A stretch of DNA of 56,601 bases, filler included, from Catajapyx aquilonaris (GCA_000934665.2; 3 parts of 3 records of this genome joined end to end with filler, not necessarily neighbours in it), one strand, 5' to 3'. Positions 1-33,320 are shown, numbered from the whole stretch's first letter. Made by a program: numbers and translations. Notes: generated from the letters alone by a model not told the origin.

Positions 1-1303
1 CTTCGGGCTCTACCGAGGTCAGGAGGTCAGGGGAAGAGACCTCTTCCCGGACATGACCCGGAACCTCAACGGAAGGGAGGTGGTGATGGGGAGTTATATA
101 CCTGTGAATATGGATGAGGTGAAGGAGAGAATGAATCGTTTGGGTGTCATGTCATTGTGTCCTTTGGAAAGAGCACTCATCTTAGTGGAAGAAATATTGA
201 AATGCAAAGTGACTGTCTTTGTCACAGCTATCACAGGAGGCGACGTACGTAACCGGTTTCCCAACGGTACCTGGACAGGAAATGTGGGCGACATTGTGCG
301 AGGAATCACCGATTGTTCCATTATGATGTTGAACACTGAGTACGCCATTGACAGCCTGGAAATGTCCCATCCCACGTTCTTTTTTCGTGGGATTATGGTG
401 ACTCGTAAACCGAGGCCTGTCTTTACTTGGAAAGTCCTCATATACCCATTCACACCCCTCATGTGGGTCTTCTTCTTCGTCACTATCGGTGCGTGTGCTC
501 TTGTCTCCTGCTTCAGGACCCCTCATAAGAACTTGTCGACAATTATTCATTCCTTCTGTTTCTCAGTGTACCGTCTTTCCCGCATTCTGATCGAGCAGCC
601 AATGACAGCTCCAAATACGTCACTCTCTCGATTTCTAACAGGATTATTTTGGATCTATGCAATCGTGGTATGCTGTGGCTACAAGACCAAAGTAGTAGAG
701 TTCATTACTTCCCCGTCAAAGGAATTTGTACCTCAGACCCTGGAAGAGATGGTCAATTCAGATTTCAAGTGGGGGGTGACCTTTTTAGAGTACGTCTTAT
801 TGCAAAACACAATGGATTTGAGTATAATAGGTGAATTTACACCCGTTTACCACGACATAATGAGCAAATTATTAATACTCGGGGATGCAAAGTCATGTAT
901 GGAGGCAACTCTCAAAAGAAATATCGCTTGTCTAATTAGTAACTTGCTTGCCGAACAAGAGCGAGATGGATTTGTGAGCAGCAGAGGAGAACTTCTCCAC
1001 TACCCACCGACAGAGTTTATGAACATGTTCATTGGTTGGGGATTCGGTAGAGGTGAAGTGTACTCTCCAAGGACGATTGAAATCCTACATTATGTTGTTC
1101 AAGGGAATATCCGCGAGAAGTGGGTTACAGACTTCAATTTCCTGCGTCATCTGCGGTCAAAAATGGAAATAGCTAAACAAGATAATGGACAAATGTTAAT
1201 TTCAGCCTATTCACTCCATGATCTGAGTGCTCCATTTTATCTTGCACTCATCGGTGCTACAACAAGTTTCGGTGTATTTTTATTGGAATTTAAGGGCCAT
1301 TAA
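1..1303 (+). CDS. Divergent ionotropic receptor (IR, variant iGluR), subfamily A, 5'-truncated by the contig start
   Basis: Frame is open from nt 2 (FGLYRGQEVRGRDLFPDMTRNLNG), so the Met at 53 is internal. IR layout: S1 FPNGTWTGNVGDIVRG, M1 YPFTPLMW, pore LIEQP, M3 IVVCCGYKTKVVEFITSP, S2 PQTLEEMVNSDF, M4 SLHDLSAPFYLALIG. No introns; close paralog of 2354-4390. Confidence 0.88.
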   Translation, partial: FGLYRGQEVRGRDLFPDMTRNLNGREVVMGSYIPVNMDEVKERMNRLGVMSLCPLERALILVEEILKCKVTVFVTAITGGDVRNRFPNGTWTGNVGDIVRGITDCSIMMLNTEYAIDSLEMSHPTFFFRGIMVTRKPRPVFTWKVLIYPFTPLMWVFFFVTIGACALVSCFRTPHKNLSTIIHSFCFSVYRLSRILIEQPMTAPNTSLSRFLTGLFWIYAIVVCCGYKTKVVEFITSPSKEFVPQTLEEMVNSDFKWGVTFLEYVLLQNTMDLSIIGEFTPVYHDIMSKLLILGDAKSCMEATLKRNIACLISNLLAEQERDGFVSSRGELLHYPPTEFMNMFIGWGFGRGEVYSPRTIEILHYVVQGNIREKWVTDFNFLRHLRSKMEIAKQDNGQMLISAYSLHDLSAPFYLALIGATTSFGVFLLEFKGH

Positions 1304-2353: not shown

Positions 2354-4390
2354 ATGCGGTTCTTTGCAACCATGCAGCTATGTGCGTTTATGCCATGGCT
2401 TGCTATTGCTGTTCATGAAATCATAACTGTTGAATTATTAGAAAAACGCTTGAAACATTCCCTGCTCGTCTCATTACTGGAGGACCTGGTGTGGGACGAG
2501 TCTTTCATCAAGTGTGAGATAGTGATAGTGAGGGAGGACAAGAGGGTCCCAGTGGACTGGATCCGTGACCTCCTGACCCGAGGGAGTGCGGAGAGAGTGG
2601 TGGTGACCACCGTGATGAAGGACTCTTCCTCCTCCTTCTCCTCCTCCCACCCATCATCATCATCATCACCAGGGTCAGCAGGGGTCACGCAGGAGGAGCC
2701 CTTCTCCTTCACCAGCATGCCCTTAGAGATGAGGTCCAGGTCCACCAGTCCAGGTCCACCCTGCGCCTTCAACATCCTCCTCCTTGGTCCATCGTCATCT
2801 CCACCACTCCCATCCCTCCCTCCCCTCATCTCCCCTCTCCTGGTCCACGCCTCCTCCTCCCTCCGGGTCAGGAACCTACACGACCCCTTCTTCTTCTTCT
2901 CCACATCCTCAAACACCACTCGTGTTGCGATGGACCAGGCCCTTCTCTCAGACACCATGGCCTCAGGGGTCAGGTTCAAGCTCATGGCCACTCCGGCTCA
3001 AGGGCAGGGGGGCAGGGGACTCAGGCTCACCTCCGTCTGCTTCTTCTGCGATCGGGGCCAGCCTGCCATCGTGGACTTCGGGCTCTACCGAGGTCAGGAG
3101 GTCAGGGGAAGAGACCTCTTCCCGGACATGACCAGGAACCTCAATGGAAGGGAGGTGGTGATTGGGAGTTATTTGCCAGCGAATTTGGATGAGGTGAAGG
3201 AGAGAATGAATCGTTTGGGTGTCATGTCATTGCATCCTCTCGAGAGAGGATACCTTCTTGCGGAAGAAATACTGAACTGCAAAGTGACTGTCTTTGTCAC
3301 TGCTATCACAGGAGGTGACTTCAAGAACCGGTTTCCCAACGGTACGTGGAGAGGCAATGTGGGTGACATCATGAGAGGAATCACCAATTGTTCCATCAGT
3401 ATGCTGAACACTGAGTACGCCATCAACACATTGCAAATGTCCCATCCTTCTGTCTTTCTGAGTGAGATTATGGTGACCCGTAAAGCAAGGCCTATCATCA
3501 CTTGGAAAGTTCTCCTATACCCTTTTACACCCCTCATGTGGGTTTCCTTCTTCATCATTATCTGCTCCTGTGCTCTTGCCTTCTGCTTTCTTATCCCTGA
3601 TAAAACCCTACCGATAATTCATTCCTTCTGTTTCTCGGCCTACCGTCTTTCCCGCATTCTGATCGAGCAGCCAATGGCAGCTCCAAATACATCACTCTAT
3701 AGATTTCTGACAGGATTGTTTTGGATCTACGCAATCGTAGTATGTTGTGGCTACAAGACCAAAGTAGTAGAATTCATTACTTCCCCATCAAAGGAATTTG
3801 TACCCGAGACCCTGGAAGAACTTGTCAATTCGGATTTCAAGTGGGCAATGATCTTTCTAGAGTACATCTTATTACAAAACACAATGGATTTGAATAAAAT
3901 AGGTGAATTTATTCCCCTATACCACGACTTAGTCAGCAAAACATTAATACTCGATGATGCAAAGTCATGCATGGAGATAACTATCAAAAGTAATATCGCT
4001 TGCGTAGTTAGTAACATGTTTGCCGAGGAAGAGCGAGATGGATTTGCGACCAGCAGCGGAGATCTACTCCACTACCCACCAGTACAATTTCTGAACATGT
4101 TTGTTGGTTGGGGATTCGGTAGAGGTGAAGTGAGCTCTACAATAGCGATTGATAGCATACATTATGCTGTTCAGGCGAATCTGCGTGAAAAGTGGATTAC
4201 TGACTTCAATTTCCTGCGTCATCTCCGGTCTAAAATGGAAATTGCCAAACAAGATAATGGACAAGTGTTAATTGCAGCCTATTCTCTCTCCGACCTGAGT
4301 GCTCCATTTTATCTTGCACTCATCGGTGCTGCAACAAGTTTCGGTGTGTTTTTATTGGAATTTAGAGACCGTAATAAGGCATCCACGTAA
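2354..4390 (+). CDS. Divergent ionotropic receptor, subfamily A, complete, 678 aa, intronless
   Basis: Signal-peptide-like N-terminus, Ser/Pro-rich N-terminal domain ending VCFFCDRG...NLNG, then S1 (NGTWRGNVGDIMRG), M1, LIEQP pore, M3 (GYKTKVVEFITSP), S2 and M4. Confidence 0.92.
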   Translation: MRFFATMQLCAFMPWLAIAVHEIITVELLEKRLKHSLLVSLLEDLVWDESFIKCEIVIVREDKRVPVDWIRDLLTRGSAERVVVTTVMKDSSSSFSSSHPSSSSSPGSAGVTQEEPFSFTSMPLEMRSRSTSPGPPCAFNILLLGPSSSPPLPSLPPLISPLLVHASSSLRVRNLHDPFFFFSTSSNTTRVAMDQALLSDTMASGVRFKLMATPAQGQGGRGLRLTSVCFFCDRGQPAIVDFGLYRGQEVRGRDLFPDMTRNLNGREVVIGSYLPANLDEVKERMNRLGVMSLHPLERGYLLAEEILNCKVTVFVTAITGGDFKNRFPNGTWRGNVGDIMRGITNCSISMLNTEYAINTLQMSHPSVFLSEIMVTRKARPIITWKVLLYPFTPLMWVSFFIIICSCALAFCFLIPDKTLPIIHSFCFSAYRLSRILIEQPMAAPNTSLYRFLTGLFWIYAIVVCCGYKTKVVEFITSPSKEFVPETLEELVNSDFKWAMIFLEYILLQNTMDLNKIGEFIPLYHDLVSKTLILDDAKSCMEITIKSNIACVVSNMFAEEERDGFATSSGDLLHYPPVQFLNMFVGWGFGRGEVSSTIAIDSIHYAVQANLREKWITDFNFLRHLRSKMEIAKQDNGQVLIAAYSLSDLSAPFYLALIGAATSFGVFLLEFRDRNKAST

Positions 4391-8923: not shown

Positions 8924-9062
8924 ACCCCGGCCTTTTTTCGACGACTAAAGGCCGGGGCCGCCCGAAATTACGCCCGGACGACCCCGGCCTTTTTTCGACG
9001 ACTAAAACGGGGCCGCCCGAAATTACGCCCGGACGACCCCGGCCTTTTTTCGACGACTAAAA
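8924..9062. repeat. Minisatellite, about 56-57 bp unit, about 2.4 copies
   Basis: ACCCCGGCCTTTTTTCGACGACTAAA..GGGGCCGCCCGAAATTACGCCCGGACG repeated head-to-tail, followed by the palindrome CTTCGACGTCATG..CATGACGTCGAAG. Confidence 0.85.
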
Positions 9063-12310: not shown

Positions 12311-13994
12311 GCCCAATTTTGAGTCACATAATTCGCAAACTGAAACTTAAACGAGTTCAATTCTAGTGGAACCTCATGACTACCCTAATCAAATGGGGTA
12401 CAATGGGCCAGCTCGTCTGAACACGTCAGTTGCCAGTTTTAGTTAATCATTATGACTCGAAAAATTGGGCACATTATACTATTAATGCAAATGAGGCAAT
12501 AAAATTTTTCCACACATTCCATAGTCTCCTGGAGCCATTTTCAAGGTTAAAAATTCGAAAATTACCGAATTTCAAACCCTGCTTTTCACCAAGGCATGAT
12601 AAAAAATGGGAATTGCGATAATATGCTTCATCTACAATCCCCCTTGGAACAACACAGGAATTGGCAGGAAAATTGATCATGGAAGAGGTCAGAATGTTGT
12701 GTTTGTCAGGTATGTACTCACCAGAGTTGTAAGGGTGGTCGTCAAGTAGCGCTTCATGTTGACAACACATCCCGATGACCATTTTGACAATCAGCGTCGA
12801 TGGAGACCCGTCTGCAGTCCTCGAACCCAATCAGTGCTGGCCTTCAAGTCGGCGTTGTCTCCCCTAATAAACAATATTCGATATAATATATGCCGCAATA
12901 TTTCACAAGTGCTTGACTGGTTCAATGGCATAGTACGTATGCACAATGCATGCTGTACTATCCCCCAGCAATTAGGGATGCTTACCATATGGTGCAGGCC
13001 CGTCGTCAGAGAGAACCTTCTCAATGGAGCTCCAGGCAGGGAAAGAAAGATTGGGCAGTAGTTCCTACCCCCCATCCACCCACCCCCTTTACACGTCATA
13101 TCTACATCAAAATGCCTTGATTCGATCGGACTAGTCTGATGCAGCTGGAGGATAACACCAGGCTCCAAGGCCTCTTCGCGAGTACAGTGCAATGCCTGAT
13201 GGATTGATGGTCCATTCTTGTTTTCAGAATGACGACAGTAATAATATCTGCATATTGAGCCAAGGTCAGCTTTCGTCACACACAAATCATGTGGTGCATG
13301 ATGTTGCCTCATCCCATCACTTATCTGGACGTATTTTAACCCTGTCTGATAACCTGCTGGTCCAATCGTCCTGTTGGGGATTTTTTAATTAATTAATTAA
13401 TATTATAGTTGTGATACACTTTAATTTATTTGGAGCTGGATGGCTGCGATTCACTGGCATTATTATTGTGTCTCGTCCGCTAAATCCAGCTCGATAGCAG
13501 AGCAATGGCAAAGGATGTCGAGCGACAATCTTTTGACAATAGGAATGGTGGACCTCATCGCTTGTGCTGCACCAACATTTTTTAATGTTGCGATGGCATA
13601 CAGTGGTCAATATCTGAAAAAAGGGCACGAAAGGGCACTAAACCGTTTAAGTACATAAAAACATGCCTCCCCATGTTTTCGGGGTCGCTTATTTCGATTT
13701 TTAAGGTATTTTGACCCTATGGACCCCACCTCCTCCCCAAAAAAACGCCTACTCTAAATTTTTTATAGGATGTTCTCTGTAATAGTTTGCATCCGAGAAA
13801 ACCAGTATTATTTTAGATTTTTTTTAAATAAGATGAAAAAATAATATTCTTCGTAAATTTGCAGAATAAACTCATTAACCATGGTACTCCCTGAGGTCGT
13901 GTGATGTTAGTTTTTTATTGAACTTCCTAATTTTCAAATGACTGAAGGTTTTGACAGACATGTTTCCTGTATGTTTCTGAGCCCTTGGGAGTCA

Positions 13995-14310
13995 GGTAGT
14001 ATTGGTGACGTCATGCGAGGAATCACCAATTGTTAAATCAATATGCTGAATACTGAGTACGCCATCAACACATTTCAAAAAAGTGAGATTATGGTGACCC
14101 GTAAACCAAGGCCTATCATTACTTGGAAAGTGCTCATACCCCTCACGTGGGTTCCTTGCTCTGTCATCAGTACCTGTGCTTTTGCTTCTGCTTTGTGAAG
14201 CCTGATAAGACCCCTTTTCCGACAATATTCATTATTTCTGTTTATCAACCTACATTCTTTTCCGCATTAAGATTGAGCAGCCAATGAAAGCAATAAAATA
14301 TGTCATTCTA
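13995..14310 (+). pseudogene. Decayed internal fragment of a subfamily A IR (S1 to pore)
   Basis: Aligns to about 3353-3700 (GGTGACGTCATGCGAGGAATCACCAATTGT..ACTGAGTACGCCATCAACACATT..GAGATTATGGTGACCCGTAAA..ATTGAGCAGCCAATG) with an in-frame TAA, deletions and frameshifts. Confidence 0.85.
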
Positions 14311-14351
14311 TCTTGTCGAGTGATACAGTCAATGAAATTCTGGAATAAAGA

Positions 14352-14466
14352 AATACCTCATTAATATGGTGGGTTTAGGTTCCAGACCACCTTGTAAATA
14401 AAATAACTTCATAAAGCAAATCACATTGATTTTTTCACTTAGTACATGTAAAAGCTGTTATGTTGA
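14352..14466. mobile_element. Terminal fragment of a pogo/Tigger-like DNA transposon
   Basis: ATACCTC..ATATGGTGGGTTTAGGTTCCAGACCACC..AATAAA..ATAAAGCAAATCACA..TTTTTT..AGTACATGTAAAAG..GTTATGTT resembles the Tigger1 terminus as I recall it; not verified by search. Confidence 0.5.
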
Positions 14467-14791
14467 GCCATTGCACTGGGTATAAAAAGTCAATCAAACC
14501 AATAGTTTTGGCAGTGAAGTAACAATGTTGAGCTTAATAAAAATATAAATGCAGGTCCCAACTCTACATCACCCTATTGCACATCCTCATCTTGGCAGGT
14601 CCTTATATAAGGGAAAGTCCATAATAAATAAATCCTCTAAAATTATCGCAAAATATCTCTGGAATCTCCTCCAATGCAACCAAATCATAATATACCAGCA
14701 GTCCACACCACATGGTTTGCTCCCATATACTATGTCTGTACAATCTTTAAGACTTCCATATTTTCATGACATGGTATCACACATGAATTGC

Positions 14792-16013
14792 CTAGTATGC
14801 ACCATGTGAATTAAATAACTGATTTGTATCAATGTATTTCAATGCCTGGGCAATCTGACGAAACGTTGGTCTCAGCTTCTGATCAGCACCCCAGCATGTG
14901 AGCATTATGTCGTACACTTCTTTTTGACATTTCTGAGGACGGTTCAAGCGCCATCCTGCTCCCAGCCAGTCCAGAAATTGTGGCACACTGCAGTTTAGTC
15001 CCATCACTGAAACATTAAAGTGAGTGCATCTTATGCGTTTGCACAACTTGAATGAAACAACTTGACTGACCTTCTGGGATTGGTGATGCAGCATTGCTGA
15101 ATATCTCATACAACAGGACTCCAAATGACCACACATCTGACTCCGTAGAAAATATTTTAAACTCAATTACTTCCGGAGCTGACCACAGGAATTGTATGGG
15201 ATAGCCATACCTTAGTCGATACATTTTGTCCAGCTGAAAATTACATAACTAATAAATATGTTCCCATCACAATTCATTCATAAATTATTCATAAACGTCA
15301 GTCTATGGAAAGATGCACAATTTTTAAAAAAATTCAGTTACTTTATCACTGCATGACTCGGCAATATTAAAGTTTCAATAAAAAACTCACATCCACTGCT
15401 TGTAAGAGGCCAAAGTCAGTGATCTTGGGAATTAAATTGTCGTCCATCATGACCTTCATTGCTGACAGATGTCCATGGACTACTTTCTTGACTTCCAAAT
15501 ATCGCATTCCATGGCATGTGCCGAGTGATATCTTCATCAGATCCTTGGTATGTAAGTTACTCCCTTCACCTGCAGAAGGTATGAGACTCACAAAAATGTA
15601 ACACTCTAGAATCTACATCGGCGTGAAAGTGAAAATACGGATGTACCTTGAAGAAACTGCTGGAGTTTTCCGACAGGCGCATGTTCCAAAGTTATAGTAA
15701 TATGCCCTGTACGATCACAAGCTGCTGCAATGTACTTCAGAATATTTTTGTGCCTGAGACTTGCCATCTTATCCACCTCTTTCACAACTTTTGCTGGAGT
15801 CATTATCACTAGAATGGATAGCAATAATGCGTTGAATTACTACGTGGCTTGAACAAAAATTACAGACAATTACTTACACACATCCTGAATTAATACTTTG
15901 ACACCTAACAAAGAATTTAAATTATTTTCTCTACATGCGACACCGAAATTTCCATGACGCAGCATGTTTCTGGCAGAAGCCCCAATCAAATCTTCAGTGG
16001 CACAACTTTCCAT
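14792..16013 (-). CDS. Tyrosine-kinase-like pseudokinase; five exons (16013-15878, 15808-15647, 15569-15391, 15233-15071, 15006-14792), 284 aa; further 5' exons possible
   Basis: Canonical GT-AG introns with consistent phases (1,1,0,1) give an 855-nt open frame. Motifs: LRHGNFGV (Gly loop), [30 protein letters not shown] (catalytic loop), [31 protein letters not shown]. Confidence 0.85.
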
Positions 16014-17398
16014 CTTGATATAGAACAAGAACATGTCAGAGTCATCAATATTGGTGGGATCTCAATAATAATGCAAGTTCTCTCATAACTATTAATGCTA
16101 CACCATAAATTACAAGACAGCATTATACTAACCGGGTTGCAAGTTGGATCCAATACGGATATGCAAGATGTGTGTGCCTGGTCATACATACATAGTAATG
16201 CTAAAATCACCCCTCCTGAAAAGAAGATAAAAAATGGCATTAGCACAACATGGCCTTATTACTCTGCAATGCCAAATGACCTACCGACAAAGACACCGCC
16301 CATGTAAGCACATACTCGGAGGTATATTAAAGTCCAACCCACAAGGACTGCCAAAGCTGCATTCAGAAGTAGTAATAAGGTGAACATTTTCCTGCTGATG
16401 TTTCCCAGCAGATTTTTGATCACATTTCTGAAATGCATGGCATAAGTTTTAAAAATAAACATACCGCCATTACTTGCTTTTTAGCAGTGACATAATAAGA
16501 TTATGCCACATAAAATATGTAACATCATTCCACTTTATCCTACACTTTAAGAGAAGATTAATACCTTCACCCATTAAATGAGCTTTCCTGGTAATTTACA
16601 CCGATGAAATGTGACCCAGCCATCAGCAGACTCAATGTGCTGTATCAGCCACAGTCTGCCAGCTGGTTGTCCACTGCATTTCTAAAATTAACACACTGAT
16701 AAGGTCAGCCATGCAGGCATGCAGGCATGGTGTAAACAAAGCTATGAACTATGCCTGTGCAATTAATTTCGTGTTAAATATACTCACAAAACGGCAAACA
16801 CGAAGAAGGAGTGTCAGACGCATGTGGTCCTGCGTATTCAAAGAATGAGGGCCAACTGCTGATAAAGCGACTTTTGTTATCTCTTCAAATGTTTGCCTCC
16901 ACAATGCACCTAGTTGTACTTTGGTCCGTGAGAGGCGACAGGATTAACAAGGAACTACCACCATCTACTAGCCAATTCAAGTAGCTAATAAACCCGCCAA
17001 TTTTAGCTGTGACGCACACATAAATATTAATTACGGTACTTGGAATTGAAGTTGCTAAAGTCAAGTGCTAGCCATGAATGTTGTACTAATTGTCTCATAA
17101 AAGTATGCAAAACTAACCAGTATCTAATATTCCACCATAAAACAATGGAGAAACAACTTGTCCAATATTTCACTTGATGCCCTGAAATCAAAAAATTAAT
17201 ATATTATATCAAAACATATTTTTAAACATTTTATTCGTCCCCATGACTTACAAACCAACGTATAATAGAGTGCTTTCCGCTACATATGCTATCTTATAAA
17301 GCTACCACATTTTCTTCACTATCTGGCTATTATAAGTGAGTTGCAACAATAATATCTGCTATGACAGTAATATGGATAAAATGTGGTGGATTGTTATA

Positions 17399-18807
17399 TC
17401 AGTGTGAGGATGGGTGAGGAGTGACATAAAATTTAGCAAGTTCCGATAAAAATGTGCCTATGCTCACTAATAAACCAAGCGATAGCAAATAAAATGGAGC
17501 GCTCAGGTCGCGTATGGTGAACTTGGCAACCAAAGGGTGGATGTGTGTCGCTTCACTTTTAATAATTTGTGTGCGGGAGTTAAAGAAGTGCATAAAACCA
17601 TAGTCTGAAAACCACTTCTGAATCAAGTGAGCTTGGAAAATGTATTGTTCAAGTTCAATTCCGGTCGGAGCGTACACTTCACCCTTTCCATATCCAGTGC
17701 TCATGAACATGTCAAGGAACTGTTCTGATGGAGGATAAACTACAAGACTTTCCCCTTTGCTATTTACAAATGTGCCAAGCTGTTCATTCGCATACAAGTT
17801 ACTTATTATACAAGCAACATCTCTCTTCAGAGTTTCTCCGATACATGATTTCGCATCGCCAAGGATTGAAGCTTTGTTAAATAATTCTCGGTATACTGGT
17901 ACATATTTGATATCTTTAGTGGCAATTGTACTTTTGACCAAGACGTATTCTATTAAAGTCATTCCCCACTCGAAATTTGAATTGACCAATTCGTGCAGGG
18001 TTGTAGGAATGTATTCATTTGATGGAGAAGTGATAAATCCAACTACTTTGGTCTTATAACCGCAGCATACCACGGTGGCGTAAATCCAGAACATTCCTGT
18101 TATAAATCTAGATAGTGACTTATTAGGCCCTTCCATTGGCTGCTCAATCAAAATGCGGAATAGAAATTCTAAGGTCTGAAGAAAAGAGCCAAACGGCTTA
18201 TATCCAGACAATGTGAAGAACAAGAAAAGTGCACAAGAAATTGTCGTTATTAAAATAGAAAACCACAACAAAGATATATGTGTATGGGTAAATGAGAACT
18301 TTCCAAGTAATAACTGGCCGTGGTTTACGAGTGACCATAATTCCATGAAAGAATACAAAAGGCTGTGACATTTCCAGTGTACCGATTGGAATCTCAGTGG
18401 TCAGCAGTATAAGGGAACATTGCGTAATTCCTCGCAGGATGTCACCCACGCCCCCAGTCCAAGTACCGTTGGGAAACTGGTTCTTAAAATCTCCGTTATT
18501 AACAGCTGTGACAAACACCGAAAGGTTACAGTTCAAATAGTCCTCTGCAAGTAGGAGAGTTCTTTCCACCGGAGGCAAACTCATTGCCTCCCCACGTCTT
18601 ATTTTGTCTCTGACTTCAGTAGTGTTGATTGAATAATAAAAACCGACAGTCACACGATGACCATTGAGGTTCCTGGTCATGTCCGGGAAGAGGTCTCTTC
18701 CCCTGACCTTCTGACCTCGGTAGAGCCCGAAGTCCACGATGTCAGGCTGGCCCCGATCGCAGAAGAAGCAGACGGAGGTGAGCCTGAGTCCCCTGCCCCC
18801 CTGCCCT
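17399..18807 (-). pseudogene. Subfamily A IR with one frameshift, 5'-truncated by the contig end
   Basis: ORFs 18198-18737 and 17399-18358 are consecutive parts of one IR. Removing 4 nt (TATA, 18275-18278) restores KVLIYPYTSLLWF, matching KVLIYPFTPLMWV of the paralogs. The frame is otherwise intact to the stop at 17399. Confidence 0.85.
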
Positions 18808-18907
18808 NNNNNNNNNNNNNNNNNNNNNNNNNNNNNNNNNNNNNNNNNNNNTTAATTAATTAANNNNNNNNNNNNNNNNNNNNNNNNNNNNNNNNNNNNN
18901 NNNNNNN
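18808..18907. other. Artificial contig linker
   Basis: Exactly 44 N + TTAATTAATTAA (stops in all six frames) + 44 N = 100 bp. Confidence 0.97.
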
Positions 18908-19033
18908 AGGATGTAATAACACTCAGTCTGGAATAGAGAGCTAGTGCGACCAGACGTTGCTTGTTGTTCCTGTCCCCCAAACCCCGTACCTTGATACGTA
19001 ACAGGCTCCATATGGACAGGGGTCACAATCGCA

Positions 19034-19435
19034 ATGTGGGCCACCCCTTGGTTGACCATAGCCAACCTGCTGCTGGGGATAGCCATGCTCCTCGTTATGA
19101 TCCGGACCATCACCTCGACATTCGAGTACGTGCGACGGCTGACCCTGGAAGCCGTGGCAGTCGTCGAGGTCACGTCGCAGGAGCTGCTGAGGAAGGGTGT
19201 TGGCGCAGTGGGGACGCCCCTGCAGAGCCTGAGGGTGACGTCTCTCGTCTCCGTAGTCAAGACGTGGGCCTCCCAGACCTTCATCTTAGGACGATGGACC
19301 CTGGGGTACCTCCTGAGCGCCTTCTTCTACGGTTTGGCTCTATTCATTATCAGCTATGTGGTCGGCGCCGCCTTCTACTTTCTGTCTGGTGCAGTGACTT
19401 ACTTCAACGGCTTGGGTGCTGTCAAATCTCAGTGA
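19034..19435 (+). CDS. Unknown hydrophobic multi-pass membrane protein, probably a terminal exon
   Basis: GC-rich 133-codon ORF with several hydrophobic stretches, possible splice acceptor TAACAG near 19004, and AATAAA at about 19451. Confidence 0.45.
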   Translation: MWATPWLTIANLLLGIAMLLVMIRTITSTFEYVRRLTLEAVAVVEVTSQELLRKGVGAVGTPLQSLRVTSLVSVVKTWASQTFILGRWTLGYLLSAFFYGLALFIISYVVGAAFYFLSGAVTYFNGLGAVKSQ

Positions 19436-19603
19436 TTGTCCAACAAAGATAATAAATAATTGTTGTGTATGGATGCAGCAAGAATTTAGTGTTTTATTTC
19501 GGGATGATGGAAATTGTGTCATGGAAGAGTCTGCTTCTAAAGCGCATGTGCCCAGCCTCATGAACGCGTGACGTAGCTCGAAACTCAAAATCTGAAAACT
19601 ATG

Positions 19604-19668
19604 CATGACGATGTGTTGACGGTTGGAAAACTCTCAGCCACATTTGACATAATATGGTTAGTCGGTTT
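19604..19668 (+). pseudogene. Short remnant of a subfamily B IR C-terminus (pre-M4/M4)
   Basis: GATGTGTTGACGGTTGGAAAACTC.CAGCCA.ATTTGACAT..TGGTTAGTCGGTTT matches about 27638-27693. Confidence 0.75.
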
Positions 19669-19683
19669 TCACCAAAACATAAG

Positions 19684-19744
19684 CTTTTGATGGGGAGTTG
19701 GCACAATATTTCACCTGGATCTCTCGCAAATACTCAGATTTATT
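19684..19744 (+). repeat. Conserved intergenic motif, once per IR repeat unit (also 24231-24293 and 28012-28075)
   Basis: CTTTTGATGGGGAGTTGGCACAAtATTTCACCT..GATcTCTC..AAATA.TC..ATT.ATTA occurs three times. Confidence 0.8.
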
Positions 19745-20534
19745 AAATAAGGCATCAGTACTAATTAGCTTGAATAAAATAACTGAAATAAGATCAAAAA
19801 TATTCCCTTCAGTGAAAATAGAGGTAGTAAGACCTCCGTGGCGGAATGAGAGTACTGAAACAAGGAAGGCGCAAGTAAGACCTTCATCAAGGTCTTGCTC
19901 AAGCAATATATTCCAAAGGACGAATAGCTCGTAAAAAATACTACTCCAAACTACTAATAGCAGTATAGGCAGGGTTTTATTTTGGGAAAATTTTGGGACC
20001 CATATTGCCAGACTTTCAAATTTTTCTGTGTTGAAAATGCAGAATCCCATCTACAGAGGCCAACAAATAATTCACCAATATTTACCTCTGCATGTATAAA
20101 AATCTGTAATGATTGCAGTAAAAATCAGCACCAAAAAGATACATTTGTGACAAATGTTTGATGGAAATAAATTCTCACCGATCATTTAGAAATTCAAAAC
20201 ACTCAATAAATTGAAGGTCCTAATTTCAGGAATCACATTTATATGAAGTGCTGGCTTATTGAACTGTTTTCAGAAAGGATAATTTGTGAGAGTTAATAAT
20301 TGTGGAATTGCTCGAGTAAGACCTACGGTACACCTTAAATCAATTGGTGAAGGTCTTACGTGCGCGCGCCTGCCTTGTTCCGGTAATTCCTTTCCGCCAC
20401 GGAGGTCTTACTACGTCTTTTTACTAAAAGGAATTAGGGCTATTTTGCTCTTATTAATATTAAGGAACACAAGTTTTGCACCAATACAAATCTACATGCG
20501 TCGTGTTACGTATAGCTTTAATGCCTTCTGAAAG

Positions 20535-20761
20535 ATAAGAACTGAAAGCATTAGTGCCTCGCACTAGAGTATATGATTTCGCGAAGTGAGCTTTTTCCCT
20601 AACAGCAGGGAAACCTATGCCCCTAAAAAGGCCATTAATAATTACTTGCCCATTTGCGTTGTAGGCTAGCGACAAATGAGTCTTGTACACGTGGCATTTT
20701 TAGTCTAGTGCATGGGTGTCAAGACCTTGGGAGACATTCGGGCCTCAGGAAGTAGGTGACC
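20535..20761 (+). promoter_or_regulatory. Conserved proximal upstream region of subfamily B IRs (also about 25520-25750 and 31110-31277)
   Basis: Shared AAGCATTAGT.CCT, CAGGG.AAC..ATGCCC, AATAATTACT..CCCATTTGCGTTGTAGGC, GACAAATG.GTC.TGTACACGT and TGACCATGGCC start context. Function is inferred from position only. Confidence 0.55.
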
Positions 20762-22804
20762 ATGGCCTTGTGGCAAGCACTGACTCTTTGCTCCGTGATT
20801 ATAATTCATTTTGGAGGTGATGCTGGATCAGAAGCAAATTTTGGTGTTGGGAACTTATCGCTTGCAGTGAATCAGGAAGAAGACAAGCTGGTGTCTCTGC
20901 TGGTCAGGACTCTTCTGACTGAAAGAGATGACCTCAGACAGTGCGGGCTCGTCCTGTCCACAGACAAGACACGATTGGGACAGGACATTTGGGGTCTCCT
21001 CTCGTCACAATGGGACAAGTACCTGACCTCATTCAATCTCCGGATGACCACTTTCCCGTACACATTTCGTGACTTCCCTTGGGTTAAAAGTCAGAAGGAA
21101 ATGCTGGACTTTGCGACTGTCCCTCCGGACATCATGTCCAGGGTTTGGTCCGGACTGACCTGCACCTTTCACCTTCTGTTGCCTTCAAAACCCTCTTCCT
21201 TTGCACAGCTTCTCATGTACACAGCCACAATGGTCAAGTTGGTGCCTGCATACGATCGGTTCCTGATTCATTTCCAATCGAAAAGCTCAGAGAAGGTTCA
21301 CCAGTTGTTGAAATCGCCTCCTGCAAGTGCACTCTGGCTCAAAGTGTCTACAGTGATGGAGTCGGACAAGCTTCGGATGGACACTGTTTGCTTCTTTTGC
21401 GGACACCAAGGACAAACTGAACTCATTCCTCTCGGACACTTCAGCCGACACCACGGTTTTCTTGCTCCTCATTTTAGACCCAATGAACCCAACAAGATGA
21501 ACAATCTAACATATCGGGTGGGTTTTTACCATCTCAGTGTCGATATGGAAGACGTGAGGATGAAGGCAAAGACTCTGGGTGAAATATATTTGACAGACCT
21601 GGAACGCGCTTTCCTCTTGACAGAACAATCCCTAAATGGCCACATTGAATTTTGCTCGAAAGAAGTCACTAGCCCAGAATTAGATCATCGCCTTGAAAAC
21701 GGATCATGGGTTGGCTTATCCGCTGACGTTATTTCTGGGAAGATACGTGGCGCATTCTTTATATTTCTCTCCGAGGAAACCATCCAGTTCCTCTTGTCCC
21801 AAGCTCCCCATTTTTATGCCCACGCGGCATTCTTGACGAGGAAGCCTGGAGGTGTGGTGACATGGAAAGTGGTGTACAGGCCTTACCCACTCTCATTCTG
21901 GATCCCGTTTCTTGTCACACTCGTCTTTTGCTCCGTCGCCACGTGCACTTTGTCACGTCACGTTCCTTCGAGGCAGTCACCATCCGACAGAAGGACTCTG
22001 TTAGGATCACTGAGCCTTGTGGTGAGAACCATGATCGAGCAGCCCATGCCATTTCCGAAAGCGGGTCACTTCCTGGTGCTGGCCTCTTTTCTCCTCTTCT
22101 TCTCAATGGTGGTCATCACCGGATACAAGGCCAAGTTATTCGCATTCCTGACCTACCCTCCCAGGGAATTCGTCCCTGTCAATTTCCGAGAACTGGCTGA
22201 ATCCGGCTGGAAGATCGAGGCTGACCAAATGGAATTCTTCATATTACAAAAATACGGTTCGCTTCAGCAGGATGACCCAGTGATAACCAAGTTAGCTGAG
22301 ACCCTGCAGTTGGGAGGCGGCGTCCAGCATTGCCTGGACAGGGCCTTGAAAGAGCACCTAGCTTGTGCTGGCGTAGACCTGTTCCTGCTTCGAGAAATGT
22401 ATCGCTTCAGAGACACGGCCACTGGGTCACCAACCATCCTGGTCTCTGAGGAGCTGAAGTATCCCACGTACGTTGCGGGAGCCGTTTCCCGTGGAGACAC
22501 AGCTATATACCAATTATCTGCACGAGTCGTCAATATGGCAATGGAAACAGACTTGCCATTCAAGATCCAAGACCACTACACGTACATGCAGTACCTTAAG
22601 TCATTAAAATACATCAGAGCGCAGGAGGCCAAGAAATCCGAGCACGAGGACGACGTGTTGACCGTCGGAAAACTTGCAGCCATGTTTAACCTATGGCTTG
22701 TCGGTTTGGCAGTTTCTCTTGTCGGTTTTGCTTACGAGCAGATAACGGCTCAGATGCGCAAGAAGAAGACGGCAAGACGACCCCCCTGTAAGTTCATACC
22801 GTGA
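20762..22804 (+). CDS. Divergent ionotropic receptor, subfamily B copy 1, 680 aa, intronless
   Basis: ATG in ACCATGG context at 20762. Signal peptide, VCFFCGHQG, S1 NGSWVGLSADVISG, M1 YRPYPLSFW, pore MIEQP, M3 VITGYKAKLFAFLTYP, S2, M4 LTVGKLAAMFNLWLVGL. Confidence 0.92.
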   Translation: MALWQALTLCSVIIIHFGGDAGSEANFGVGNLSLAVNQEEDKLVSLLVRTLLTERDDLRQCGLVLSTDKTRLGQDIWGLLSSQWDKYLTSFNLRMTTFPYTFRDFPWVKSQKEMLDFATVPPDIMSRVWSGLTCTFHLLLPSKPSSFAQLLMYTATMVKLVPAYDRFLIHFQSKSSEKVHQLLKSPPASALWLKVSTVMESDKLRMDTVCFFCGHQGQTELIPLGHFSRHHGFLAPHFRPNEPNKMNNLTYRVGFYHLSVDMEDVRMKAKTLGEIYLTDLERAFLLTEQSLNGHIEFCSKEVTSPELDHRLENGSWVGLSADVISGKIRGAFFIFLSEETIQFLLSQAPHFYAHAAFLTRKPGGVVTWKVVYRPYPLSFWIPFLVTLVFCSVATCTLSRHVPSRQSPSDRRTLLGSLSLVVRTMIEQPMPFPKAGHFLVLASFLLFFSMVVITGYKAKLFAFLTYPPREFVPVNFRELAESGWKIEADQMEFFILQKYGSLQQDDPVITKLAETLQLGGGVQHCLDRALKEHLACAGVDLFLLREMYRFRDTATGSPTILVSEELKYPTYVAGAVSRGDTAIYQLSARVVNMAMETDLPFKIQDHYTYMQYLKSLKYIRAQEAKKSEHEDDVLTVGKLAAMFNLWLVGLAVSLVGFAYEQITAQMRKKKTARRPPCKFIP

Positions 22805-23562
22805 ATATTTTGCTGATATCAGTGATATGACTATAGAGTATTATACGGTTTGTTCTCCCTTCCCAGAAATTATAATTATAATATTAATATATATTTGGCG
22901 ACTTTTTGATCACATTTCAAAATTGGACACAGCTCCCTTTATAACCTCCGGGACTTTGATGTATCAGGTCCAGCAACTATATTCGAAGCCCGCAATCACT
23001 CCCATGGACACAGGACATTTTTTGCACTCCCTCTGACTTAAGTTAGAGTCTCACTATAATCAGACCATACCGTACCGTATATGCATAATTTTTTTCTTAC
23101 TAACTCGTCCCACTTATGTGTTGAAGGCAACATAATCACAAACATAGCTGATTAAATAATCACATATTTAAGTACTGGTTTTTAAAAAGGTGCAAACTGG
23201 GACGTAGCCTACACTACAATGTATTTTACGACCTTTAACATGTAGGATAATTATAAATGACCACGAATAAATACCCAACATGCAATATCGTTAGATTGTA
23301 TACCGCGTATATCAATGCACATTGTTGGATCTTCGAATTTTTGTGTGTTTTGCTGTCTTTGTTGTCATTTTTTTGATATCTGGCAATTTGGCGTCTCGTT
23401 ACCCAGCAATCATAAATTACATTTAAGCTTTACATGCGCGGGTCGTTCTCAGGTTCCGTCTTATTTAGACTGCTTTAGAAGCATGATCATGTGTTTTTGT
23501 TTGATTGACAATCCTGTTTGGTGCATACAGATATCATTATAATATTATACACAGACTCTGCC
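22805..23562 (+). repeat. 3' flank duplicated with 33321-34021
   Basis: Colinear similarity from ATATTTTGCTGATATCAGTGAT to TACACAGACTCTGCC after copies 1 and 3. Confidence 0.85.
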
Positions 23563-23609
23563 CGTGTAATACTGTGCAACAAAAATTATACTCCAATAAT
23601 TTTTAAACA

Positions 23610-24000
23610 TTAACCCTTTGCTGCCTACGGACATTATACAGTATGATGTCCTGAGATTTGCCCTGCCAACTTGGGTAATTTTTCAACTCAAAAAATTTCA
23701 ACCTCACCGATTTTCTTGAAATTCGGTGCATTGACATATGCCCCCCTCCAATACGGGTCCCAGGGTCATTTTGAGCCGGTAACTATAGGTGCGTTTTTCA
23801 TCCCTTGGGGAGGGCTACCATTGCGCCGAATTTCAAGAGAATCGGTGAGTTCGGAATTTTATGATTTGACCTCTGCCTCCCTCAAAATTGGGTCACGAGG
23901 TCATTTTGATCAGGTAACTATAGGTGCGTTTTTCATCCCTTGGTGTGGGCTATCAATGCACCGAATTTGAAGAAAATCGGCGAGGTCATAAAATTTCCGG
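23610..24000. mobile_element. piggyBac-like non-autonomous element (MITE)
   Basis: Starts TTAA-CCCTTT. Subterminal inverted repeats 23702-23734 / 23953-23985; internal direct repeats 23764-23808 / 23899-23943. Right end degenerate. Lies just beyond the block shared with copy 3. Confidence 0.6.
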
Positions 24001-25750: not shown

Positions 25751-27787
25751 ATGGCCTTGTTGCAAGCACTGACTCTTTGCTCCTTGATTTTCAACAATGT
25801 TGGAGTAGTCGCTAAGGCAGAAGGGAATGGTGTTGGGAACATATCACTTGTAGTGACTCCAGAAGAAGACATACTGGTGTCTCGGCTGGTTCAGACTCTT
25901 CTGACGGAAAGAGATGACCTCAGACAGTGCGGGCTCGTCCTGTCCACAGACAAGACACGATTGGGACAGGACATTTGGGGTCTCCTCTCGTCACAATGGG
26001 ACAAGTACCTGACCTCCTTCACTCTCCGGATGACCACGTTTCCATACACATTTCGTGACTTCCCCTGGTTGAAAAGTCAGAAGGAAATTTTGGACTTTGC
26101 GACTGTCCCTCCGGACATCATGTCCAGGGCGTGGTCCGGACTGCCCTGCACCTTTCACCTTCTGTTGCCATCGAAACCCTCTTCGTTTGCACAGCTTCTC
26201 ATGTACACAGCCACAATGGTCAAGTTGGTGCCTGCATACGATCGGTTCCTGATCCATTTCCAATCGAAAAGCACAGAGAAGGTTCACCAGTTGTTGAAAT
26301 CACCTCCTGCAACAGCACTCTGGTTGAAGGTGGCCACGAAAATGGAGTCGAATGAGCTTCGAATGGACACGTTTTGCTTCTTTTGTGGACACCAAGGACA
26401 AACGGAACTCATTCCTCTCGGACACTTTCGACAGCTGCATGATTTAAATGTTAGCAGGTTTTTCATGCCAAATGAACCCAACCGGGGGAACAACGGGACA
26501 GCAATAATGGGCAACTACCAAATCAATGTTGATATGGAATACGTGAGGAGGACAGCAAAAACTCTGGGTGAAATGCATTTGACGGACATGGAACGCGCTT
26601 TTCTTTTGGCAGAACAAGTTCTAAATAGCCACATTGTATTTTACCTGAAGGAAGTGACCAGCCCAGACTTGGATCACAGGATGGACAACGGAACCTGGAT
26701 GGGTCTAGCAGCTGATTTAATATCCGGAAAAATAGACGGCGCATTTTTCGTATTTATATCCGAGGACACTCTTCGATACATCCTGTCTCCTCCGCCTCAT
26801 TTTTTTGCCCACGCAGCATTTTTGACTAGGAAACCCGGAGGCGTCGTCAGATGGGACGTTGTGTGCAGGCCATACCCGCTCATCTTTTGGATCCTGTTTT
26901 TCTCAACTCTCATTGTCTGCTCGATAGCCATACGAAAACTGTCAGACCATACTCCTGGAAGCCAGTCGCAGATGAACAGGAAGAGTCTCTTGGGCTCATT
27001 GAACATTATGGTGAGATCCATGATCGACCAGGCTATCCCTTTTCCCAAAGCGGGTCACTTCCTGGTGCTGGCCTCTTTTCTCCTCTTCTTCGCAATGGTG
27101 GTCACCACAGGATACAAGGCCAAGTTGGTCGCCTTCCTGACCTACCCTCCGAGGGAATTCGTCCCTGTCGATTACCAGCAATTGGTTCAGTCAGACTGGC
27201 AGTACGAGGCTGAACAACTGGAATTCTTCATAATGACAAAGTACGGGAGTCTTGTCAAAGGAAAGGTGAACGAGAAGTTTATGAAGAACATGAAGCTGGG
27301 TGGGAGTGTCCAGAGTTGTCTAGACAGAGCCATGGAAGAAAAGCTAGCATGCGTCGGAATCGACCTATTCCTGATTCGAGAAATGTATCGCTTCAGAGAC
27401 ACGTCCACTGGGTCACCTACCATCCTGATATCTGAAGAGCTTAGATTTCCGACGTACGTTGCAGGCGGAGTCTCCCGTGGAAACACAGCCGGGTACTTCC
27501 TAACTGAAAAATTCGTCCGGATGGCAGTGGAAACAGCCTTGCCATCCATGATCCAAGAACACTACATGTACATGCAGTTCCTTCAGTCATTAAAATACAT
27601 CAGAGCGCAGGAGGCCAAGAAAGCTGAGCACGAGGAAGATGTGTTGACGGTTGGAAAACTCGCAGCCATATTTGACATTTGGTTAGTCGGTTTGGCAATC
27701 TCTCTCCTAGGTTTTATTCTAGAGCTGCTGTACCAAAGATGCAGCAGACACAAGGCTAAAAGGAAACAATATCCGTTTTTACCATGA
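25751..27787 (+). CDS. Divergent ionotropic receptor, subfamily B copy 2, 678 aa, intronless
   Basis: Same architecture: NGTWMGLAADLISG, CRPYPLIFW, MIDQA, VTTGYKAKLVAFLTYP, LTVGKLAAIFDIWLVGL. Confidence 0.92.
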   Translation: MALLQALTLCSLIFNNVGVVAKAEGNGVGNISLVVTPEEDILVSRLVQTLLTERDDLRQCGLVLSTDKTRLGQDIWGLLSSQWDKYLTSFTLRMTTFPYTFRDFPWLKSQKEILDFATVPPDIMSRAWSGLPCTFHLLLPSKPSSFAQLLMYTATMVKLVPAYDRFLIHFQSKSTEKVHQLLKSPPATALWLKVATKMESNELRMDTFCFFCGHQGQTELIPLGHFRQLHDLNVSRFFMPNEPNRGNNGTAIMGNYQINVDMEYVRRTAKTLGEMHLTDMERAFLLAEQVLNSHIVFYLKEVTSPDLDHRMDNGTWMGLAADLISGKIDGAFFVFISEDTLRYILSPPPHFFAHAAFLTRKPGGVVRWDVVCRPYPLIFWILFFSTLIVCSIAIRKLSDHTPGSQSQMNRKSLLGSLNIMVRSMIDQAIPFPKAGHFLVLASFLLFFAMVVTTGYKAKLVAFLTYPPREFVPVDYQQLVQSDWQYEAEQLEFFIMTKYGSLVKGKVNEKFMKNMKLGGSVQSCLDRAMEEKLACVGIDLFLIREMYRFRDTSTGSPTILISEELRFPTYVAGGVSRGNTAGYFLTEKFVRMAVETALPSMIQEHYMYMQFLQSLKYIRAQEAKKAEHEEDVLTVGKLAAIFDIWLVGLAISLLGFILELLYQRCSRHKAKRKQYPFLP

Positions 27788-31277: not shown

Positions 31278-33320
31278 ATGGCCTTGTTGCAAGCACTGAC
31301 TCTTTGCTCCGTGATTATAATTCATTTTGGAGGTGATGCTGGATCAGAAGCAAATTATGGTATTGGGAACTTATCACTTGCAGTGAATACGGAAGAAGAC
31401 AAACTGGTGTCTCTGCTGGTCAGGACTCTTCTGACTGAAAGAGATGACCTCAGACAGTGCGGGCTCGTCCTGTCCACAGACAAGACACGATTGGGACAGG
31501 ACATTTGGGGTCTCCTCGCGTCACAATGGGACAAGTACCTGACCTCCTTCACTCTCCGGATGACCACGTTTCCATACACATTTCGTGACTTCCCCTGGTT
31601 GAAAAGTCAGAAGGAAATTTTGGACTTTGCGACTGTCCCTCCGGACATCATGTCCAGGGCGTGGTCCGGACTGCCCTGCACCTTTCACCTTCTGTTGCCA
31701 TCGAAACCATCTTCGTTTGCACAGCTTCTCGTGTACACAGCCACAAAGGTCAGGTTGGTGCCTGCATACGATCGGTTCCTGATTCATTTCCAATCTAGAA
31801 GCACAGAGAAGGTTCACCAGTTGTTGAAATCGCCTCCTGCAAGTGCACTCTGGTTGAAGGTGTCCACAAAAATGGAGTCGGACAAGCTTCGAATGGACAC
31901 TGTTTGCTTCTTTTGCGGACACCAAGGACAAACTGAACTCATTCCTCTCGGACACTTCAGCCGACACCACGGTTTTCTTGCGCCTATTTTTCGACCCAAT
32001 GAACCCAACAAGATGAACAATCAAACAGTTCGAGTGGGTTTTTACCAACTCAGTGTTGATATGGAAGACGTGAGGATGAAGGCAAAGACCCTGGGTGAAT
32101 TGCATTTGACAGACCTTGAACGCGCTTTTCTTTTGGCAGAACAATCCGTAAATGTTCACATTGAATTTTACTTGAAGGAAGTCACTAGCCCTGAATTAGA
32201 TCATCGCCTTGAAAACGGATCATGGGTTGGCTTATCGGCTGACATTATTTCTGGGGAAATAGCATTTGCATATTTCATATTCCTCTCCGAGGAAACCATC
32301 CAGTTCCTCTTGTCTCCTCCGCCACATTTTTATGGCCACGCAGCATTTCTGACTAGGAAGCCTGGAGGCGTGGTGACATGGAAAGTGGTGTACAGGCCTT
32401 ACCCACTCTCATTCTGGATCCCGTTTCTCGTCACACTCGTCTTTTGCTCCGTCGCCACGTTCACTTTGTCACGTCACGTTCCTTCGAGGCAGTCACCATC
32501 CGACAGAAGGACTCTGTTAGGATCACTGAGCCTCGTGGTGAGAGCCATGATCGAGCAGCCCATGCCATTTCCCAAAGCGGGTCACTTCCTGGTGCTGGCC
32601 TCTTTTCTCCTCTTCTTCTCAATGGTGGTCATCACCGGATACAAGGCCAAGTTATTCGCCTTCCTGACCTACCCTCCCAGGGAATTCGTCCCTGTCGATT
32701 TCCCAGAACTGGTTGAATCCGGCTGGAAGATCGAGGCTGACCAAATGGATTTCTTCATAATTCAAAAATACGGTTCGCTTCAGCAGGATGACCCGGTGAT
32801 GGCCAAGTTCTCTGAGGCCATGCAGTTGGGAGGGGGCGTCCAGCGTTGCCTGGACAGGGCCTTGAAAGAGCACCTAGCTTGTGCTGGAATCGACCTGTTC
32901 CTGATTCGAGAAATGTATCGCTTCAGAGACACGGCCACTGGGTCACCAACCATCCTGGTCTCTGAGGAGCTGAAGTATCCCACGTACGCTGCGGCAGCCG
33001 TTTCCCGTGGAGACACAGCTGCATACCACATTGTTGCAAGATTAGCCCGGATGGCAATGGAAACAGCCTTGCCATTCAAGATCCAAGACCACTACACGTA
33101 CATGCAGTTCCTTAAGTCATTAAAATACATCAGAGCGCAGGAGGCCAAGAAAACTGAGCACGAGGACGACGTGCTGACAGTCGGAAAACTTGCAGCCATG
33201 TTTAACCTATGGCTAGTCGGTTTGGCAGTTTCTTTCTTCGGCTTTGCTTACGAGCAGATAACTGCCCAGATACGTAAGAAGAAGGCGGCAAGACGACCCC
33301 CTTGTAAGTTCATTCCGTGA
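31278..33320 (+). CDS. Divergent ionotropic receptor, subfamily B copy 3, 680 aa, intronless
   Basis: ATG in ACCATGG context at 31278. Closest overall to copy 1, with the same IR motifs. Confidence 0.92.
   Translation: MALLQALTLCSVIIIHFGGDAGSEANYGIGNLSLAVNTEEDKLVSLLVRTLLTERDDLRQCGLVLSTDKTRLGQDIWGLLASQWDKYLTSFTLRMTTFPYTFRDFPWLKSQKEILDFATVPPDIMSRAWSGLPCTFHLLLPSKPSSFAQLLVYTATKVRLVPAYDRFLIHFQSRSTEKVHQLLKSPPASALWLKVSTKMESDKLRMDTVCFFCGHQGQTELIPLGHFSRHHGFLAPIFRPNEPNKMNNQTVRVGFYQLSVDMEDVRMKAKTLGELHLTDLERAFLLAEQSVNVHIEFYLKEVTSPELDHRLENGSWVGLSADIISGEIAFAYFIFLSEETIQFLLSPPPHFYGHAAFLTRKPGGVVTWKVVYRPYPLSFWIPFLVTLVFCSVATFTLSRHVPSRQSPSDRRTLLGSLSLVVRAMIEQPMPFPKAGHFLVLASFLLFFSMVVITGYKAKLFAFLTYPPREFVPVDFPELVESGWKIEADQMDFFIIQKYGSLQQDDPVMAKFSEAMQLGGGVQRCLDRALKEHLACAGIDLFLIREMYRFRDTATGSPTILVSEELKYPTYAAAAVSRGDTAAYHIVARLARMAMETALPFKIQDHYTYMQFLKSLKYIRAQEAKKTEHEDDVLTVGKLAAMFNLWLVGLAVSFFGFAYEQITAQIRKKKAARRPPCKFIP

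Follow-up and report, generated by a model that had tools for sequence, protein, structure and literature searches.

How does a set of receptor genes in one array, one copy of them inverted and some 15 kb away, come to carry an almost identical N-terminal stretch in front of ligand-binding parts that have diverged widely? The question is raised by a window of 56,601 nucleotides (filler included) from Catajapyx aquilonaris (GCA_000934665.2), which is the whole stretch of DNA that was analysed here. Runs of N at 18808-18851, 18864-18907 and 37708-37807 show that the window consists of three contigs (1-18807, 18908-37707 and 37808-56601). Stop-to-stop frames and tblastn located two sets of genes without introns, each gene of about 680 codons and three to a contig, the uninterrupted frames being 678-680 codons long. 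Subfamily A (A1, A2 and A3) lies in contig 1 and subfamily B (B1, B2 and B3) in contig 2, and the two subfamilies share ~25% protein identity by tblastn. The coordinates are collected in Table 1; residues of A2 are numbered from the codon at 2351, one codon ahead of the ATG. The surviving part of A1 begins with the final 72 bases of the shared stretch, hereafter the cassette, and the remainder is a ligand-binding and channel part with 79% protein identity to A2. The reading frame of A3 shifts at about 18255-18271, within a short CA/TA run of the first membrane helix, as judged from two tblastn pieces in different frames and from two open frames that overlap there.

Table 1. Features of the window, with positions counted from its first base
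Feature	Position	Strand	Description
Gene A1	1..1303	+	5' end lost at contig start; open frame, tblastn
Gene A2	2354..4390	+	Complete, intronless divergent ionotropic-receptor gene; 678 codons and stop, first ATG at 2354
Homogenised cassette in A2	2457..3147	+	~690 bases, codons ~36-266
Gene A3, ligand-binding and channel part	17399..18660	-	Old paralog of A2
A3 cassette piece	18661..18807	-	Last 147 bases of the cassette, truncated by the end of contig 1
Spacer	18808..18907	.	N runs and linker joining contig 1 to contig 2; non-biological
Gene B1	20762..22804	+	Second IR subfamily; homogenised block at codons ~54-226 (~20921-21439)
Gene B2	25751..27787	+	Divergent member of subfamily B
Gene B3	31278..33320	+	Close paralog of B1 across the whole gene; codons 54-150 closest to B2

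The genes had been taken, from the sequence alone, to be of the IR/iGluR kind, and this assignment was borne out for subfamily B by Pfam Lig_chan (PF00060) and for A2 by the match of its model to AMPA LBD-TMD chains. All three B proteins scored above the Lig_chan cut-off of 30.8 bits (B1 34.6, B2 33.5 and B3 34.1). In subfamily A the same profile stayed below that cut-off, at 19.9 bits for A1 and 24.6 bits for the rear piece of A3, and A2 gave no Pfam family at E<=0.01. A HMMER search with A2 against 1.84 billion representatives returned 492 relatives at E<=0.001, the best of them 25% identical, and a second homologue search with A2 returned none at E<=0.001 among 7,999 scored candidates. When ten of the relatives were scanned, nine matched Lig_chan, eight of these above 30.8 bits, and five matched Lig_chan-Glu_bd, two of these above its 30-bit cut-off; the tenth was a 162-residue N-terminal fragment. 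A2 was also modelled with AlphaFold2 on an alignment of 48 sequences (mean pLDDT 77.8); Foldseek matched the model to receptor chains of the AMPA, kainate, delta and NMDA types, the lowest E-value being 2e-19. Against AMPA LBD-TMD-only chains the model gave Z of 20-22.3 over 349-377 residues (rmsd 5-10), the alignment spanning model residues 265-271 to 671-679 and starting at GluA2 391-397 in the numbering of the entries, and the order S1, channel, S2 and final membrane helix was present in the model. The genes of both subfamilies are divergent ionotropic receptors, subfamily A being placed by fold and sequence relatives, not by profile. They also show the trait of divergent ('tuning') IRs, being single-exon genes in a tandem array that lack a full-size amino-terminal domain: the part of A2 ahead of S1 comprises ~265 residues, and full-length GluA2 chains align only from their own residue 87-114.

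An earlier note on this DNA had reported 145 matching bases out of 147 between 3001-3147 and the reverse complement of 18661-18807, and full identity of bases 1-58 to 3076-3133. Recomputation returned the same counts (145/147 and 58/58), and contig 1 does break inside the cassette at both ends as stated there, on the left at the equivalent of position 3076 and on the right at the equivalent of 3001. The two mismatches between A2 and A3, at 3066 (C vs A) and 3098 (G vs A), are both amino-acid-changing when read from the codon alignment. A shuffle test was applied to the columns of the A2/A3 alignment (1418 columns, 10,000 shuffles). The best fragment score did not exceed 38 in the shuffles, compared with 135 observed, nor did the longest identical run exceed 37, compared with 65 observed; since neither observed value was attained in any of the 10,000 shuffles, the match is not due to chance. 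Outside the cassette A2 and A3 agree in 760 of 1271 columns (0.598), and the fall is abrupt, with 59/60 and 52/60 in successive 60-base windows and then 29/60 and 35/60 after 3147. The description of protein identity beyond the cassette as 'roughly half' was right overall (~47-57% by tblastn), but the 23 residues quoted in its support are less alike than that, with only 7/23 identical. For subfamily A the N-terminal comparison covers one whole domain (A2), 147 bases of A3 and 72 bases of A1.

The A2 cassette codes for the folded N-terminal domain in full, including a Ser/Pro-rich disordered loop, and ends in the Gly codon of the motif NLNG, at the first residue of S1. The proposal that the common stretch stops at the start of S1 agrees with the structural comparison, in which the last common codon is Gly266, LBD-TMD-only chains align from 265-271 and the first S1 strand of the model comprises residues 268-273. 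On the predicted structure, the 3' edge of the cassette is thus the boundary between the N-terminal domain and S1 to within a residue or two. The motif itself is absent from subfamily B (B1-B3), and the consensus of the 48 sequences holds only a loose N..G ahead of the first S1 strand. A shared 5' exon joined by splicing was also considered and was ruled out, because three different receptor bodies follow the cassette in frame and without a gap. As a description of architecture, the constant/variable layout inside single exons that had been suggested for these genes holds, the genes being intronless.

The number of cassette copies was approached through four public DNA runs (X1-X4) from one sample, possibly the source of the window, which contain 90-92% of the sampled words of 2318-4390. 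Run contigs built from 31-letter words were aligned to 2300-4400 at a likeness of at least 90%, and depth was taken as the mean word depth of each assembled contig, from which rare variants are dropped. Run contigs that fall within 2680-3133 and differ from A2 at 0 or 1 positions had depths of 264.8-285 (X1), 323.1-333.9 (X2), 318.7-340.1 (X3) and 203.3-231 (X4), compared with 21.3-24.5, 24-35, 27.1-35.7 and 13.5-19.7 in the same order for contigs of the flanks (2300-2486 and 3203-4276). The word depth of the cassette interior is therefore ~9-17 times that of the unique flanks, centred near 11-12. An excess of this kind over the single-copy flanks had been predicted, and is seen here in contig word depths from one sample.

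The same contigs displayed both edges of the cassette. Position 2503 was covered by 10-14 different contigs, and summed depth, which is not a copy number, reached 530-930 in 2442-2583. The contig specific to A2 ends at 2486, and loose ends at 2466 and 2470 mark other contigs that enter the cassette from unlike upstream sequence. Towards the 3' edge the summed depth was 85-155 in the bin 3152-3222 and had come down to the single-copy level by 3223-3293. At 3066 the run contigs carry A, the base of A3, and the C of A2 was not seen among them. Within the limits of contig word depth from one sample, these data fit roughly ten near-identical copies of a cassette of ~690 bases (~2457-3147), the flanks differing between copies. 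A repeat so long and so uniform accounts for the break of the short-read assembly at both ends of contig 1.

Synonymous divergence gave the clearest contrast between the cassette and what follows it. By the Nei-Gojobori method, dS between A2 and A3 was 0.029 in 49 cassette codons vs 1.438 in the next 135 codons, and the sole synonymous difference among the cassette codons lies at the third position of the Gly codon, immediately past the 147 bases. For A1 and A2 the contrast was weak, with dS of 0.13 in 24 cassette codons (two synonymous differences) vs 0.37 in the other 408 codons. Equal dS in the N-terminal and ligand-binding domains, the outcome that the earlier note had named as speaking against its reading, was thus not found, either for A2-A3 or for the pairs B2-B3 and B1-B2 given below. 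Purifying selection at the protein level alone was ruled out as the cause of the uniformity, because the synonymous sites are uniform too. Gene-wide positive selection on the ligand-binding part was not seen, dN/dS being ~0.33 for A1-A2 and 0.34 for B1-B3. The claim that the N-terminal domain has been homogenised across old paralogs, including an inverted copy ~15 kb away, is supported by this contrast in dS together with the contig depth, while its whole-domain, many-copy part rests on contig word depth in one sample.

Base composition changes at the same places. GC3 in A2 was 0.749 in the cassette vs 0.371 upstream of it (codons 1-35) and 0.467 downstream, and in A3 it was 0.816 in the cassette part vs 0.407 after it. 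In 25-codon windows the steps coincide with both cassette edges: windows of A2 inside the cassette ranged from 0.60 to 0.84, the first window of the gene stood at 0.44 and the window straddling the 5' edge at 0.56, and downstream values lay between 0.24 and 0.64 with the final 4-codon window set aside. Leaving out the low-complexity loop left the cassette value of A2 essentially unchanged, at 0.758.

Subfamily B, whose three genes are complete within one contig, served as a replicate. In codons 51-225 nucleotide identity among B1, B2 and B3 was 0.83-1.00, whereas elsewhere, including codons 1-25, B2 was 0.49-0.83 identical to B1 and B3 in most windows. The dS of B2-B3 was 0.092 in codons 51-225 vs 0.695 from codon 226 to the end, and that of B1-B2 was 0.23 vs 0.79 over the same two parts, while the value for B1-B3 was alike in and out of the block (0.158 vs 0.175). 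Whether the closest relative changes from one part of the gene to another was tested in this subfamily, all three copies of subfamily A having only 72 bases in common. Informative sites in the block grouped B2+B3 25 times, B1+B2 7 times and B1+B3 14 times, and elsewhere 57, 33 and 314 times, so that sites contradicting B1+B3 made up 32/46 in codons 51-225 vs 90/404 elsewhere (Fisher p = 2e-10). There are no bases private to B2 between alignment codons 54 and 168, and B2 tracks B3 from codon 54 to codon 150 and then B1 from 151 to 175. This pattern of shared sites makes B2 a mosaic, with two or more tracts that come from different donors. GC3, on the other hand, is not raised in the B block (0.59-0.62 vs 0.56-0.58 outside), a point against GC bias as a uniform signature.

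Between the two subfamilies the N-terminal parts are 26-28% identical, with 22 invariant columns that include four Cys, and the B block is the same structural domain as the A cassette. A distant representative found by HMMER is 43% identical to A2 over residues 114-234. The N-terminal domain is ancestral and not newly acquired by capture, because it is homologous in A, in B and in the distant representative.

We hold domain-restricted interlocus gene conversion to be the best reading of the uniform N-terminal cassette, and a likely one. The reading is based on near-identity that extends to synonymous sites, on edges that are sharp at either end, on a word depth that indicates multiple copies, on raised GC3 in subfamily A and on a mosaic of donors in subfamily B. 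A break in one copy of a repeated sequence can be mended from another copy. In the present case, repeated non-reciprocal copying between paralogs would keep the cassette near-identical in roughly ten or more copies, including the inverted copy 15 kb off, with a break in one cassette copy being repaired from another. Tracts would end where the flanks had diverged too far for a heteroduplex to form, and the uniform block would in this manner keep itself uniform. GC-biased repair may lift GC3. Conversion of the ligand-binding part would either be impossible at its divergence or be selected out.

Several alternatives have to be weighed against gene conversion of this kind. The block could stem from one or a few recent events (a single unequal exchange or conversion that affected the 5' half of A3 and some other copies, or the spread of a chimeric gene in a recent burst) and now be diverging, and a single event would indeed suffice for the 145/147 of A3; moreover, the copies carry private changes, at 3066 in A2, where the contigs show A, and at 3098 in A3. 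However, the signal-peptide part of A2 upstream of the cassette is unique, as the end of its contig at 2486 indicates, and the tract therefore lies inside the gene, which an exchange of the 5' half through crossing-over would not produce. A GC3 of 0.75 vs ~0.4 needs long-continued biased repair, subfamily B holds two or more tracts from different donors, and many events would be required for about ten copies whose flanks are unlike, all of which makes a recent origin quite improbable in our estimation. A collapse of similar but distinct N-terminal sequences into one consensus, made both by the assembler and by the contig builder of the public runs and attached to several genes, would be in keeping with both ends of contig 1 lying within the stretch, with the loss of rare variants from contigs and with the failure to see the C of A2 at 3066 in the run contigs. 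Such an artefact is nevertheless very unlikely. Two distinguishing bases were retained between A2 and A3, so the copies have not simply been merged; contigs of 31-letter words run unbranched for 250-366 bases at ~10x depth, so most copies share those words exactly; and the same pattern recurs in three B genes that are fully assembled in one contig.

Uniformity might also be imposed without any copying, if the nucleotide sequence as such were constrained by an RNA structure, by a regulatory element or by an overlapping gene. Long open frames do overlap the block, in the other sense frame at 2569-3192 and on the opposite strand at 2413-2997, but frames of this sort are expected at 60% GC, and among the three B genes only B3 has an antisense frame of at least 150 codons. 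Neither the switch of closest relative along the gene nor the raised GC3 follows from constraint, and at 26-28% protein identity between the A and B blocks no common element is conserved; we give this explanation very little credence. That part of a mobile element, or some captured fragment, landed upstream of different receptor bodies is extremely unlikely: multi-copy depth and the contig breaks could be expected of it, but three genes have the cassette joined in frame at one and the same codon, the domain that it encodes has homologues in the N-terminal part of distant IRs, and the A2 copy of the cassette is flanked by neither terminal repeats nor element genes.

A further proposition concerns what the uniformity is for. 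The N-terminal domain could be a 'constant region' maintained by selection, one that serves the whole subfamily in docking or assembly, either with a shared co-receptor or in the mixing of co-expressed paralogs, and we regard this as possible but unlikely. Edges that match the domain exactly and recurrence in two unrelated subfamilies of the window speak for it. The frameshift of A3, if real, points the other way, since a dead copy that is still near-identical would favour a purely mechanical process over a selected constant region. If the domain were selected to be constant, these receptors might by analogy follow the design logic of clustered protocadherins, with recognition assigned to a variable part and common contacts to a constant one.

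A comparable case has been described in the accessible text of Yu et al. 2007 (PMC1852091) for the Pcdh2 subclusters of fugu, where the variable exons of protocadherins undergo regional gene conversion. There, a block that is >99% identical in nucleotide sequence has a discrete boundary inside the exon, the rest being 60-80% identical, and GC3 is 54-69% in the block vs 38-45%, the rise in GC3 being taken as evidence of repeated conversion; the effect was first noticed during assembly (PMC1852091). Both systems, as far as that text goes, consist of tandem paralogs with a large single exon and a near-identical block with a discrete in-exon boundary, both show raised GC3 (75% vs 37-47% in A2 and 54-69% vs 38-45% in fugu), and in both the blocks differ strongly between subclusters (~38% in fugu and 26-28% for A vs B here). 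The receptors of C. aquilonaris differ from what is described of the fugu genes in belonging to another protein family and phylum, in having one copy inverted and in lacking a spliced shared constant exon; furthermore, the uniform block is N-terminal with diverged sequence on both sides, whereas that of the fugu protocadherins occupies the 3' end of the exon.

Among ionotropic receptors themselves, gene conversion between Drosophila paralogs has been detected with GENECONV (Almeida et al. 2014, PMC4122928); in the accessible passages of that paper two groups affected the tree and three were classed as 'maybe', and the effect was judged minimal. The receptor family and the process are the same as here, but the Drosophila cases, as presented in those passages, concern a few orthologous groups, without a domain-wide block in about ten copies. 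Insect divergent IRs are described in the available part of Croset et al. 2010 (PMC2924276) as mostly single-exon and clustered, with expansion by non-allelic recombination, and the same source states that in iGluRs the assembly of subunits is under the control of the amino-terminal domain; nowhere does this paper use the words 'gene conversion' (0 occurrences). The present genes resemble the insect divergent IRs of that description in being intronless, in tandem and laid out as S1, pore and S2, and differ from them in having a folded N-terminal domain of ~230 residues before S1. No description of an N-terminal block homogenised across IR paralogs was found in literature titles and abstracts, nor in the accessible text of PMC4122928 and PMC11526382.

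With this locus, regional gene conversion gains a clean new example among chemoreceptor genes of the arthropod type; as the process is well known, the general interest is moderate. There are three practical consequences for annotating chemoreceptor families and tracing their evolution. Trees built from whole IR sequences of the C. aquilonaris genome would mix two histories, duplication ages taken from the N-terminal part would come out far too young, and short-read assemblies would break or mis-join IR genes at the cassette. The little-studied N-terminal domain of divergent IRs is the part that the arrays would keep uniform while the ligand-binding lobes diverge, and its uniformity offers a testable handle on candidate roles in assembly, trafficking or co-receptor contact.

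In the A2 model residues ~50-256 form a folded alpha/beta unit, interrupted by the disordered Ser/Pro-rich loop at 90-134, and full-length GluA2 chains align from model residue 13-35 with rmsd of 11-20. When the domain was folded alone from a 5-sequence alignment, the mean pLDDT was 33.5 and the model was unusable; a predicted complex of two copies of the domain scored 0.00, the fold of the domain itself being uncertain in that prediction. An hmmscan of all four N-terminal pieces gave no Pfam family at E<=10. A language-model look-up returned, as a lead only, a top cluster in which 26% of the members carry IR75A_N (PF24576), the Pfam family for the N-terminal domain of IR75a-type receptors, with a score of 0.90 and 167 shared features.

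Summed over the assembled contigs of four public DNA runs from one sample (X1-X4), depth along the subfamily-A receptor gene A2 was raised in three patches, all lying in its ligand-binding and channel part (see table). Contigs listed over 3649-3811 carried 8-11 differences per 110-150 bases. The patches look like conserved motifs common to paralogs at 90-93% identity rather than uniform blocks. In runs X2 and X3, one contig was also seen to track the near-identical N-terminal cassette as far as 2784 and then to continue for about 230 further letters, of which the 30 displayed resembled, by eye, sequence coding for the S2 ligand-binding lobe; a receptor copy with a large internal deletion would thus be suggested.

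In A3, the member of the same subfamily on the opposite strand, tblastn returned two pieces in different frames, and the open frames overlap at the site of the frame change, which falls within the first membrane helix. Either A3 is a young pseudogene that still bears the uniform cassette, or the frame change stems from a sequencing or assembly error. A separate subfamily-A fragment, accompanied by a short second piece, has neither the N-terminal part nor the channel end, and is therefore probably the remnant of a gene. An isolated piece that resembles the subfamily-B C-terminus sits between B2 and B3, two genes of the subfamily-B array.

Two further long open frames overlap with the GC-rich cassette, one of them antisense, as is expected at 60% GC. 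Two open frames with ribosomal-protein family matches lie downstream of the subfamily-B array, and a frame on contig 3 that scores weakly against RNase H probably belongs to a retroelement.

Positions of minor features in the window
Feature	Position	Strand	Detail
Raised-depth patch, A2	3294-3435		~3-9x flank level
Raised-depth patch, A2	3649-3790		~3-9x flank level
Raised-depth patch, A2	4217-4358		~3-9x flank level
Long open frame over cassette	2413-2997	-	opposite strand
Long open frame over cassette	2569-3192	+	second sense frame
Subfamily-A fragment	13995-14292	+	61.8% identity to A2 residues 335-410 (tblastn)
A3 frame change	18255-18271	-	short CA/TA run
Subfamily-B C-terminal-like piece	28270-28449	+	54.8% identity to B1 residues 617-672 (tblastn)
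Open frame, Ribosomal_L22	34845-35309	+	E 4e-26
Open frame, Ribosomal_L21e	36246-36815	-	E 4e-46
Open frame, RNase H	51097-51858	-	26.4 bits (cut-off 25.8)
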